Shown one piece after another: positions 6,911 to 45,232 of a stretch of DNA of 64,000 nt. A program made the translations under genes and the position numbers. The stretch is from Eledone cirrhosa (Eukaryota), in assembly GCA_964016885.1 (NCBI GenBank), contig OZ024752.1, positions 14,012,001-14,076,000 on the forward strand, in the 5' to 3' direction. A model generated the notes under the pieces. It was given only the letters and a program-made list of their open reading frames with translations, had not been told where the DNA came from and did no database searches. How positions within the stretch are numbered: position 1 is the first letter of the stretch; every line of letters starts with the position of its first letter.

Positions 6911-7090
6911 ATTTATTCTCGCCGTTTTGTCTAAGATCAAAGTGTAGTATCTGTCCTTGATCTGATACGGTCTCTATATGGGATCATCGATATTAAATTT
7001 GTTTTTTAGAAACAGGTGAAGAGCTAGGAGCTTGCTCCACCTTTACCATGGTTTGGCCTTTTATTACAGTACTTATTTGGTGACATGCTG
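6911..7090 (+). pseudogene. U2: U2 snRNA pseudogene
   Basis: ttctcgccgttttgtctaagatcaaagtgtagtatctgt (branch-point pairing GUAGUA), tctgatacg, Sm-like aatttgtttttt, taggagcttgctcc; a deletion and many substitutions. Confidence 0.85.
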
Positions 7091-7228
7091 ATTCTATGTA
7101 ACTTATATTCATCAAATTGTAACGCTATTTTCTGTTTCGCATTTTTTGTGCTTAACAAGTCACCCATGGGTGAATCTTATATATTGGAGGAATGCGAGAC
7201 TGTGTCAGGGATATGTTTTCTGAACACA

Positions 7229-36830: not shown

Positions 36831-37413
36831 TATAATATATTTATTATATTTTATTGTTTTTATTTTTTTTATTTTTCTTAATTTATAGATACATTTATAT
36901 TAGGCTGTCTGGTCTGACAATCTAATACTGACCCCTCCCCCCCCCTCCCACCTAATTTCTGTATCTTGATCTTGAAATGTGTGTACCAGTGGTTTTATGT
37001 GAGTGACTTAATTTCTATTTGCTTATGATTTTATATCCACATATATAAATGTGAGTGGGGGAGTGTGTGTGTTTGTATGTTCGTGGTTATGTGTATATTT
37101 ATGCATATACGCACATGTATGTGTGATTATACTGATATGTGTGAGTATGAAAAAATATATTTATATGCTTGACTCCATAAGTATCATTGCGTATCTTATC
37201 AGCGCATTAAGCTTACAGAGATATTAACCTTGAAATTTTGTGTTTGCATCCATCTTTTTAGTATGCACATACAAATTATACACACATTATTGTAAAATAT
37301 GTGTAAGGTTTTTACATGTATATACACACACCAAACTGCTTTTAACCCTTTGTGTTTTCATTGGTCAATTTTGAACTGATATTTTGAATTGTTGTTATTA
37401 TCAATAAATATAC

Positions 37414-37568
37414 TTCATTATTTCTGAAGACGGCGTATATATGAGTTAGGTATGTATATTTAATCTTGATAATTTGTATAATTTTGTATAATTTTGTACA
37501 TAGATCTGTTAAATATGCATACCAATTATAACACATATATACCCTAGAAACGATCGTTAAATAGTGAA
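37414..37568 (+). ncRNA. Type I hammerhead ribozyme with very long stem II
   Basis: ttcattattt-CTGAAGA-[~115 nt hairpin]-GAAA-cgatcg-TT-aaatagtgaa; 10-bp stem I. Confidence 0.8.
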
Positions 37569-37779
37569 CTTTTTTTGTTTAATATAAGGAATTGTTTGTT
37601 CATTATTTGTTTAATATTTTATCTTGACTCTGTATACCGTTTATCTTTCACCGAAAGTGGATTTTCATTACATCTCTTCTTTCCATGATATCCGGAATAC
37701 ATTGAGTTCTTCATACGGATTGGACACTACCGTAAACTCTTGGTAGATTTATCTACATATATTTATATATATATATATT

Positions 37780-37890
<111 letters not shown>

Positions 37891-37895
37891 ATATT

Positions 37896-38912
37896 TATAA
37901 TAGAAGAAGTTAATATGCCCGTAGGTACTAAGTACCTCTGGAAATATATAGGTTGTATATGATTTAAGTTTGTTCTATGGTATTAATTTGACAGACCAGA
38001 ACTATAATATTAAGATAAGCAGAACAAGCAAAATTCACCCAATTTTTTAAAATAAATAAAAAAATATAATTTAGATATTTACCTATTCTTTTGGCCCTTA
38101 CCGTTCGGTTTCGCTTTGTAAAACATCAGAAATCCAATGGATTTCCAATGGAAAATCAAAGTTCATCAGAGAAGCATTTTCCTTCCCTAGGGGTAAAGAC
38201 CCAGGAACGATAAAATATATTGTTATCTGCCAGCTAGCACAGATCCAAAAGGCCGAAAAATGACCTGTACGTGAACTACCCGAGGTGAAAGCGGGAAAAG
38301 CATAGACGTGTTGTCTATCTCGTTACTAAAAATAGCAGCTAAATATACACAACAGATTTGTTCTCAACATAACGGAGTATAATAATAGAAGAAGTTAATA
38401 TGCCCGTGGGTACTAAGTACCCCTGGGAATATATAGGTTGTATATGATTTAAGGTTGTTCTATGGTATTAATTTGACATACCAGAACTATATATTTCCAG
38501 GGGTACTTAGTACCCACGGGCATATTAACTTCTATTATTATACTCCGTTATGTTGAGAACAAATCTGTTGTGTATATTTAGCTGCTATTTTTAGTAACGA
38601 GATAGACAACACGTCTATGCTTTTCCCGCTTTCACCTCGGGTAGTTCACGTACAGGTCATTTTTCGGCCTTTTGGATCTGTGCTAGCTGGCAGATAACAA
38701 TATATTTTATCGTTCCTGGGTCTTTAGCCCTAGGAAAGGAAAATGCTTCTCTGATGAGCTTTGATTTTCCATTGGAAATCCATTGGATTTCTGGTGTTTC
38801 ACAAAGCGAAACCGATCGGTAAGGGCCAAAAGAATAGGTAAATATTTAAATTATATTTTTTAATTTATTTTAAAAAATTGGTTGAATTTTGCTTGTTCTG
38901 CTTATCTTAATA
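37896..38912. mobile_element. Retrozyme-like element A: ~485-bp HHR unit in two divergent arms
   Basis: Direct repeat with period 485 (37901 vs 38386), inversion at ~38490, HHRs at 38094-38175(-) and 38745-38826(+), (TA)n flanks. Confidence 0.8.
38745..38826 (+). ncRNA. Type I hammerhead ribozyme
   Basis: gcttct-CTGATGA-gctttg..caaagc-GAAA-ccgatcgg-TA-agggc. Confidence 0.88.
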
Positions 38913-38920
38913 TATATATT

Positions 38921-39020
<100 letters not shown>

Positions 39021-39068
39021 TATTTATATATATATATATTTATATATATATATATATTTATATATATT

Positions 39069-39101
<33 letters not shown>

Positions 39102-39331
39102 ATATTTATTTATATATATATATAATATATTTATATATATATATATATATTTATTTATATATATATTTATATATATATATATTTATATATATATATATAT
39201 ATATATTTATATCAAACATATGTGCTAAGTTTAGAATTCATTAAATATTTCGTCAAAGTTTGTAATGAAAATAAATGAACTGGGTTACTTCATTAGTTAC
39301 TCTACTTAAAGGTATCTAAATATATAAAGAT

Positions 39332-42321: not shown

Positions 42322-45232
42322 CTTCCTCTATATCTATTTCTCATTTCCTATTTCTCATATCCTCTCTCTCATATCCTCTCACTTCCTCTCTCTTACATCC
42401 TCTCACTTCCTCTCTCTTACTTCCTCTCTCTCACTTCCTCTCTCTTACTTCCTCTCTCTCACTTCCTCTCTCTTACTTCCTCTCTCTCACTTCCTCTCTC
42501 CCATATCCTCTCTCTCATATCCTCTCTCTCACTTCCTCTCTCCCATATCCTCTCTCTCATATCCTCTCTCTCACTTCCTCTCTCTCACTTCCTCTCTCTC
42601 ATATCCTCTCTCTCACTTCCTCTCTCTCATATTCTCTCTCTCACTTCCTCTCTCTCACTTCCTCTCTCTCATATCCTCTCTCTCACTTCCTCTCTCTCAT
42701 ATTCTCTCTCTCATTTCCTCTCTCTCACATCCTCTCTCCCATATTCTCTCTCTCATATCCTCTCTCTCATATTCTGTCTCTCACTTCCTCTCTCCCAGAT
42801 CCTCTCTGTCATTTCCTCTCTCTCATATCCTCTCTCCCATATTCTCTCTCTCATATTCTCTCTCTTATATCCTCTCTCTCATATTCTCTCTCCCATATCC
42901 TCTCTCTCATATTCTCTCTCCCATATCCTCTCTCTCATATTCTCTCTCTCATTTCCTCTCTCTCATATCCTCTCTCTCATATCCTCTCTCTCACTTCCTC
43001 TCTCTCACTTCCTCTCTCTCACTTCCTCTCTCTCACTTCCTCTCTCTCATATTCTCTCTCTCATTTCCTCTCTCTCACATCCTCTCTCCCAGATCCTCTC
43101 TCTCATTTCCTCTCTCTCACATCCTCTCTCTCATTTCCTCTCTCTCACATCCTCTCTCCCAGATCCTCTCTCTCACTTCCTCTCTCTCACTTCCTCTCTC
43201 TCACTTCCTCTCTCTCACTTCCTCTCTCTCATATTCTCTCTCTCATATCCTCTCTCTCACTTCCTCTCTCTCGTTTCCTCTCTCTCACTTCCTCTCTCTC
43301 ACTTCCTCCCTCTCATATTCTCTCTCTCATTTCCTCTCTCTCACTTCCTCTCTCCCATATTCTCTCTCCCATATTCTCTCTCTCACTTCCTCTCTCCCAT
43401 ATTCCCTCTCTCATATTCTCTCTCTTATATCCTCTCTCTCATATTCTCTCTCTCATATCCTCTCTCTCATATTCTCTCTCTCACTTCCTCTCTCTCACTT
43501 CCTCTCTCTCATATTCTCTCTCTCATTTCCTCTCTCTCACATCCTCTCTCCCAGATCCTCTCTCTCATTTCCTCTCTCTCATATCCTCTCTCCCATATTC
43601 TCTCTCCCATATTCTCTCTCTCACTTCCTCTCTCCCATATTCTCTCTCTCATATTCTCTCTCTTATATCCTCTCTCTCATATTCTCTCTCTCATATCCTC
43701 TCTCTCATATTCTCTCTCTCATATCCTCTCTCTCACTTCCTCTCTCCCATATTCTCTCTCTGACTTCCTCTCTCCCATATTCTCTCTCTCACTTCCTCTC
43801 TCCCATATTCTCTCTCTCATTTCCTCTCTCTCATATCCTCACTCTCATATTCTCTCTCCCATACCCTCTCTCTCATATTCTCTCTCTCATTTCCTCTCTC
43901 TCATATCCTCTCTCTCATATCCTCTCTCTCACTTCCTCTCTCTCGTTTCCTCTCTCTCACTTCCTCTCTCTCACTTACTCTCTCTCATATCCTCTCTCTC
44001 ACTTCCTCTCTCTCATATTCTCTCTCTCATTTCCTCTCTCTCACTTCCTCTCTCCCATATTCTCTCTCCCATATTCTCTCTCTCACTTCCTCTCTCCCAT
44101 ATTCTCTCTCTCATATTCTCTCTCTTATATCCTCTCTCTCATATTCTCTCTCTCATATCCTCTCTCTCATATTCTCTCTCTCATATCCTCTCTCTCACTT
44201 CCTCTCTCCCATATTCTCTCTCTCACTTCCTCTCTCCCATATTCTCTCTCTCACTTCCTCTCTCTCATATTCTCTCTCTCATATCCTCTCTCTCACTTCC
44301 TCTCTCCCATATTCTCTCTCTCATTTCCTCTCTCTCATATCCTCTCTCTCATATTCTCTCTCCCATATCCTCTCTCTCATATTCTCTCTCTCATTTCCTC
44401 TCTCTCATATCCTCTCTCTCATATCCTCTCTCTCACTTCCTCTCTCTCGTTTCCTCTCTCTCACTTCCTCTCTCTCACTTCCTCTCTCTCATATCCTCTC
44501 TCTCACTTCCTCTCTCTCATATTCTCTCTCTCATTTCCTCTCTCTCACTTCCTCTCTCCCATATTCTCTCTCCCATATTCTCTCTCTCACTTCCTCTCTC
44601 TCATATTCTCTCTCTCATATCCTCTCTCTTATATTCTCTCTCTCATATCCTCTCTCTCACTTCCTCTCTCCCATATCCTCTCTCTCATATTCTCTCTCTC
44701 ACTTCCTCTCTCTCACTTCCTCTCTCCCATATTCTCTCTCTCATTTCCTCTCTCTCATATCCTCTCTCTCACTTCCTCTCTCTCACCCCCTCTCTCTCAC
44801 TTCCTCTCTCTCACTTCCTCTCTCTCACTTCCTCTCTCTCATATCCTCTCTCTCACTTCCTCTCTCCCATATCCTCTCTCTCATATTATCTCTCTCATTT
44901 CCTCTCTCTCACTTCCTCTCTCTCTCATATTCTCTCTCTCATATCCTCTCTCTCATATCCTCTCTCTCATTTCCTCTCTCTCATATCCTCTCTCTCACTT
45001 CCTCTCTCCCAGATCCTCTATCCCATATACTCTCTCTCATTTCCTCTCTCTCATATCCTCTCTCACTTCCTCTCTCTTACTTCCTCTCTCTCACTTCCTC
45101 TCTCTCACTTCCTCTCTCTTACTTCCTCTCTCACACTTCCTCTCTCTCACTTCCTCTCTCTCACTTCCTCTCTCTCATTTCTTCTCTCTCATATCCTCTC
45201 TCTCACTTCCTCTCTTTCACTTTCTATCTTTC
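42322..45232. repeat. Polypyrimidine minisatellite, 14-bp unit (tctctctcacttcc / tctctctcatatcc / tctctcccatattc)
   Basis: Seen directly; begins right after a SINE fragment at 42235-42321. Confidence 0.95.

Follow-up and report, generated by a model that had tools for sequence, protein, structure and literature searches.

Paired fixed termini in head-to-head insertions of a 485-nt hammerhead-motif repeat of Eledone cirrhosa

Non-LTR (metazoan) retrozymes appear, in the cited sections of PMC7229834 and 10.64898/2026.07.22.740005, as short, low-GC, non-coding tandem units, each carrying one type I hammerhead motif, which range from monomers to multimers and share their genomes with Penelope-like elements (PLEs). 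Those sections deduce mobilisation by PLEs from the ribozymes in common, from co-occurrence and from phylogeny, without recourse to insertion junctions, and the second of the two sources states that retrozyme mobility is unresolved. EN+ PLEs, as portrayed in passages of PMC3846280 and PMC8557442, show head-to-head inversion, a tail on one end, 5′ truncation, insertion into microsatellites and microhomology at their junctions, so one-sided tails together with inverted pseudo-LTRs are already known for PLEs in qualitative terms. The origin of the tandem and inverted insertions and of the tails is described as open in parts of PMC8557442 and PMC11167929. In vitro, according to the relevant sections of PMC11167929, Poseidon PAc extends both strands and has two internal reverse transcriptase (RT) start sites that bound the tail; it is predicted to be a dimer, uses an AT-rich target and does not need a hammerhead for insertion, and in the bulk assay the start site was no different between top and bottom strands. 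Poseidon PAc is autonomous, unlike the 485-nt unit described here.

We analysed a 64,000-nt stretch of Eledone cirrhosa DNA (the window) and found in it a single 1.0-kb insertion of a dispersed, non-coding 485-nt repeat, set in a (TA)n microsatellite (37757–37896 on the left, 38914–39212 on the right) that is abutted by both outer ends of the two-armed structure. Unit coordinates (U) were defined by taking U1–485 as the reverse complement of window positions 38007–38491. The left arm, on the minus strand (37897–38491), equals U1–485 followed by U1–110. Its full unit occupies 38007–38491 and is separated by an internal site A, between 38006 and 38007, from a 'tail' (37897–38006) that contains predicted hairpins at U5–35 and U60–94 and whose outer end, 37897, is the fixed terminus B. 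The right arm, on the plus strand (38487–38913), is a 5′-truncated unit, U56–485, and its outer end, 38913, is the fixed terminus A. The 5′ ends of the two arms meet head to head and overlap in the microhomology CTATA (38487–38491).

The initial annotation had read this locus as an interrupted palindrome of a 485-bp hammerhead unit, with arms of about 1.23 and 0.88 unit joined at ctata near 38490. The geometry agrees: direct repeats lie 485 apart, the opposed arms measure 595 nt (1.23 units) and 427 nt (0.88 unit), and the joint is the CTATA overlap. That reading did not name the element class and missed that the outer ends are the fixed termini A and B of the family. It also took the differences between the arms as a sign of a true insertion; we observed 15 differences in 435 aligned columns between the arms and 6 in 115 positions between the two tandem heads of the left arm, so the structure is not a read fold-back. 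Measured against the family majority, private changes are several in the left unit and few in the right arm. Across the palindrome, the innermost 193 nt (38194–38386 versus their mirror) are identical and the outer part has 10 substitutions, a pattern that may reflect chance or inner gene conversion.

Other features were noted in the window. The end of another abundant repeat lies at 37380–37760; this repeat is found beside many unrelated loci and likewise adjoins TA repeat. A U2 snRNA match with a damaged 5′ stem (6911–7096, plus strand; 84.9 bits) is possibly a pseudogene, a reverse transcriptase fragment lies at 21–1391 on the minus strand (RVT_1, E=5.5e-11), and a 2.9-kb array of 206 copies of a 14-nt pyrimidine-rich unit spans 42339–45219.

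Searching the 3.0-Gb animal genome with the repeat returned 1991 DNA-level candidates, 40 of which were scored and gave 56 matches at 93–100%. Exact patterns for the 3′ half of the hammerhead and for the 3′ end of the unit matched 715 and 1001 times, respectively, and their reversed controls not once, which disposes of the idea, raised with the initial annotation, that this might be single-copy sequence. Copies of the window type form subfamily A, with a median divergence of 2.5% from their own majority; subfamily B is ~80% identical to A and diverges by 0.6% from its own majority; further minor lineages are present beside these two, and a family D has a unit of 478 nt that is 69% identical to A. 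As in non-LTR retrozymes, the unit is short (485 nt) and low in GC (0.35, under the 50% mark), and tandem units are in register. Arms longer than one unit continue in register, the longest single arm comprising 8 units (3965 nt). At C1:382893018–382902103, of which part was fetched, matches at 485-nt multiples over ~9 kb suggest an array of up to ~19 units.

ATG frames in the tandem unit reach at most 26 aa in A, 34 aa in B and 78 aa in D, and on these three representative units the repeat is non-coding and non-autonomous; the RT plus GIY-YIG reading frame of an autonomous PLE was looked for in the unit and is absent. Plant-type LTR retrozymes have type III hammerheads in LTRs and a 4-bp TSD, whereas here we found type I topology, tandem units and no LTR pair. 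The element is very probably a retrozyme or a non-autonomous PLE, most plausibly a non-LTR retrozyme, a class already known, here with an unusually long tail. At 485 nt, the unit is slightly longer than the 150–450 bp quoted for non-LTR retrozymes in the pertinent part of PMC7229834, and its stem II is long.

Loci of subfamilies A and B were merged into 121 stretches holding 124 insertions, from which three segmental duplicates were dropped to leave 121; five of these (four complex, one at a stretch edge) fall outside the single-arm and two-arm counts. A position-ordered sample took in every match to site A within the first 218.7 Mb of C1 (59 insertions), and family D was sampled at 30 loci. 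Some of the locus searches favour B ends and the 3′-end pattern requires site A, but within its own set none gives mixed pairs an advantage over same-type ones. We found that the 5′ ends of the copies are variable and the 3′ ends fixed, lying at U485 (site A) or at U99–116 (site B; mostly 101–107 or 114). Sites A and B are ~102–114 nt apart, which is the tail length, and the A-to-B segment is a long version of the PLE 'tail': about three times the 30–40 nt given for EN+ PLEs in the quoted parts of PMC3846280 and PMC8557442, and in a 485-nt unit without a reading frame. Consistent with the (TA)n target of PLEs, TA repeat follows 150 of the 157 A/B ends. Single arms (n=74) mostly end at A (62), with 10 at B and 2 elsewhere; 54 of the 74 have TA repeat on the 5′ side as well. 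Target duplications are unreadable in (TA)n; this and the length of the tail count against the explanation that we favour.

All 59 two-arm inverted insertions of subfamilies A/B and family D are head-to-head, as in the PLE footprint. The 42 from A/B include 37 with one A and one B end, none with A+A, none with B+B and 5 with one unclassified end. Family D gave 15 A+B inversions out of 17 (2 unclassified, 0 same-type), and the position-ordered C1 sample 12 out of 14 (2 unclassified). Every inversion with both ends classifiable, 52 of 52, therefore pairs one A with one B and has its tail on one end; at the most favourable independent choice of ends, 50:50, P(A+B) is at most 0.5 and p=2e-16. By comparison, the cited passages on EN+ PLEs place the tail 'optionally' or 'often' on one end (PMC3846280, PMC8557442). 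Our search of the open-licence literature found no count of strict A+B pairing, no nesting test and no retrozyme junction analysis. B arms run past site A in 34 of 42 cases, and the arms overlap at their junctions by mostly 0–6 nt. In L1 twin priming, two target ends prime two cDNAs and an inversion results; the second cDNA is primed at a variable site, at which the first cDNA stops. In the present family, unlike L1, neither site varies, and B arms that start at site A, where an L1-type reaction would have stopped them, occur in only 4 of 52 inversions, so we rejected that model.

We regard it as likely that the insertion is a non-autonomous, non-coding retrozyme moved in trans by a (TA)n-targeting PLE reverse transcriptase-endonuclease, and two-primer synthesis is a strong likelihood for most of the inversions. 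A PLE enzyme, probably a dimer, would cut both strands of (TA)n, and each target 3′-OH would prime one cDNA on the RNA, one at A and the other at B. The two cDNAs would converge, stop at variable points and be joined by short microhomology (CTATA in the window). If only one cDNA were extended, usually that from A, a single 5′-truncated arm would result. Since most arms cross the predicted hammerhead cut site, the template would be a circle or an uncut multimer, with perhaps a minority of cDNAs running off 5′ ends left by the hammerhead cut. More tentatively, and with slightly less than an even chance in our estimate, one asymmetric RT-EN dimer, seated on the structured tail of a single, probably circular RNA, may commit one target end to A and the other to B.

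Two-primer synthesis has to be weighed against the improbable alternative in which the inverted arm is made when a single cDNA primes itself or folds back, or is copied from an antisense template, and the tail is left when the endonuclease resolves the intermediate, as proposed in passages of PMC3846280 for self-priming and of PMC8557442 for the tail. In a DNA fold-back, one of the arms is copied from part of its partner. The arms are nested in 33 of the 52 inversions, the window's element among them, and in 8 of 52 they start at the same unit position within ±11 nt (p=0.003), with one such junction centred on the stem III palindrome. However, in the 19 others neither arm is contained in the other, each holding sequence that its sister lacks, which rules out fold-back copying for those. 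This number is near that expected from permuted pairing (22.7±3.1), so the arms behave as independent copies of an outside template; the B end also lies on either side equally (21:21). A minority of inversions may be fold-backs, and the window's nested element alone does not decide between fold-back and two-primer synthesis. At diagnostic cells, sister arms match in 128 of 142, compared with 64% for unrelated copies, and so come from one lineage. They are closer to each other than to any other copy in only 4 of 28 cases and farther in 19 of 28, so one common RNA molecule is not supported by this nearest-neighbour test, in which post-insertion mutation dominates.

The copies have the architecture of PLE ends, and pseudo-LTRs and retrozymes are related in Xenopus according to the cited part of 10.64898/2026.07.22.740005, so they could be 5′-truncated pseudo-LTR remnants of the kind left by an autonomous PLE and not an independent retrozyme. 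We consider this distinctly improbable, because arms longer than one unit run in register into another unit, up to the 8 units already mentioned, and the longest frames of the A, B and D units are short (26, 34 and 78 aa). Frames of at least 100 aa were scanned in loci L001–L030, and the one distinct upstream sequence checked, that of L030, is an unrelated palindromic repeat and was rejected as an autonomous parent. The L030 repeat (L030:1180–1392) is itself abundant, short and MITE-like, with 1672 candidates in the genome. Spread of a minisatellite at the DNA level, by unequal crossover or DNA circles, with later local inversions and an incidental hammerhead, would fit the long arrays and the near-identical tandem sisters of the young subfamily. 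It is very improbable given the fixed 3′ and ragged 5′ ends, the strict head-to-head A+B pairing, the TA targeting and the compensatory stem changes over ~30% divergence. A sequencing or assembly fold-back seems extremely improbable: contigs of four sequencing runs, of unspecified kind, contain the family and none spans the junction at 38491, as short contigs of a repeat, but the arms differ at the 15 columns noted above and the same geometry recurs, with other breakpoints, at 58 further loci.

We applied to the unit the core words and numbering that we take to define a hammerhead. The right motif (38744–38828, plus strand) consists of stem I (38744–50/38822–28), the core CUGAUGA (38751–57), a 6-bp stem II base (38758–63/38802–07) with an extension, GAAA (38808–11), a palindromic stem III, ACCGAUCGGU (38811–20), and GUA. 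Its topology is type I, with a predicted cut after U393 (38821), and there is one such motif per unit, as in non-LTR retrozymes. The initial annotation called this motif canonical, which holds for the core elements just listed but not for the whole: stem II has a long extension, stem I is weak in A and B, and no Rfam hammerhead family was matched at gathering score or at E<=10. An Rfam match to MIR6027 was discarded, being to the central palindrome only. The left motif (38092–38176, minus strand) retains an intact core and a predicted cut after 38099; its first stem II pair is broken (38162) and the centre of its stem III palindrome is changed (38104). Of 173 segments, 162 have an intact core, a share inflated by loci that were picked with a pattern containing part of the core.

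Covariation had been named with the initial annotation as a check, and the hammerhead stems do covary, with compensatory changes across subfamilies at ~30% divergence. Among the first 100 matches listed, counted by eye, stem III pair 385–390 is C-G in 18, U-A in 82 and mixed in none, a switch that is probably a single event, and two-sided changes were also observed at pairs 332–377 and 347–363, so that stems II and III both show them. For 16 diverse copies, the proportion of cells that pair is 94.9%, a share reached by 0 of 500 shuffles with relatedness among the copies uncontrolled; two-sided changes affect 3 pairs. Family D keeps the core and has a fully Watson-Crick stem I.

Judged from these sequences, we lean towards real self-cleavage of the motif. 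Against activity, the hammerhead fold is less stable, by 5.5–9.5 kcal/mol, than the predicted lowest-energy state of the circular monomer (4 representatives), and the first stem II pair is A.C in 18 and A.G in 3 of 173 segments; the negative Rfam result and the weak stem I of A and B point the same way. Weak, dimer-dependent or protein-assisted hammerheads are described in parts of PMC7229834 and PMC11167929. Arm 5′ ends fall within U385–420 in 27 of 154 cases, compared with 11.4 expected, and no simulation out of 500 equalled the densest 36-nt window of 5′ ends when all arms were taken, compared with 26 of 500 for the position-ordered subset. Comparing the 15 nt downstream of the cut with the 15 nt upstream, we counted 13 versus 7 ends for A/B and 7 versus 0 of 43 for D (query locus dropped), or 20 versus 7 combined (p=0.0096, confounded by TA microhomology). 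As a footprint of cleavage this excess is suggestive only, and TA-like sequence just downstream could cause part of it.

Other hammerhead-like motifs were encountered in the same genome, which seems to hold many such families. A separate family with a 548-nt period lies in TA repeat, in tandem at L248:2074–2736 (minus strand) and head-to-head at L212:3031–3140, and the flanks of loci L059, L172, L186, L188 and L209 contain unrelated type I hammerhead-like motifs with a long stem II.

RNAalifold predicted that U200–212 (38280–38292, minus strand, in the left arm; 38628–38640, plus strand, in the right arm) pairs with the complementary U384–398 across the cut site. Positions 208/385/390 read TTA in 87, CCG in 45 and TCG in 4 of 139 segments, and the pair counts are borderline (6 of 500 shuffles). 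In family D, other letters could form the helix at the homologous place, but in energy this anti-hammerhead helix was not beyond shuffles (18/60 and 20/60). A functional blocking helix over the cut site is plausible on this modelling, although somewhat less likely than not. Most animal retrozymes are without a blocking helix according to the relevant section of PMC7229834, in contrast to the candidate in the 485-nt unit.

A first look for PLEs in the genome returned 35,935, 57,170 and 5,265 candidates for three queries. Locus L279 (744–3167, plus strand) holds an intact 808-aa PLE frame in TA, with direct terminal repeats, RWK, DKT and CxCX5C, and by its sequence this frame matches the Hydra diagnostics set out in the cited section of PMC8557442. 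The same section has the Hydra clade of PLEs inserting in (TA)n, and the paper calls hammerheads universal in Hydra PLEs. The L279 stretch is without a CUGANGA core. A PLE similar to that of L279 is present at L241; 3′ of the frame in L241 and its relatives, which make up a very abundant Hydra-type PLE, we observed a ~110-nt tandem repeat with CUGAUGA and no obvious GAAA partner. Locus L281, with a CX4CxxC linker and a small hammerhead-like motif, is Neptune-type by motif. Pfam named none of these PLE frames. Comparison of the two Hydra-type families and the one Neptune-type family with the unit revealed no clear common sequence, which counts against trans-mobilisation as the best explanation; the best match was 44 nt on the opposite strand (E=0.006; 38 loci of one family and 2 each of the others). 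A pair of site-A matches on C1, 2.8 kb apart and considered as possible pseudo-LTRs, proved to be a local duplication of TA-rich DNA with no frame.

An obligate asymmetric two-primer reaction, if true, would account for both the one-sided tail and the head-to-head inversion in a single step and amount to junction-level evidence for PLE enzymes moving animal retrozymes; on the same reading, the circle would be preserved as an uncut template by the covarying helix that lies over the cut site. The strict A+B rule, together with the non-nested arms, yields a sharp prediction for the existing in vitro PLE assay, read at the level of single molecules. A short non-coding family of about a thousand copies records many complete integration events, and its paired fixed end points hint at how a poorly understood class of retrotransposon inserts into DNA.
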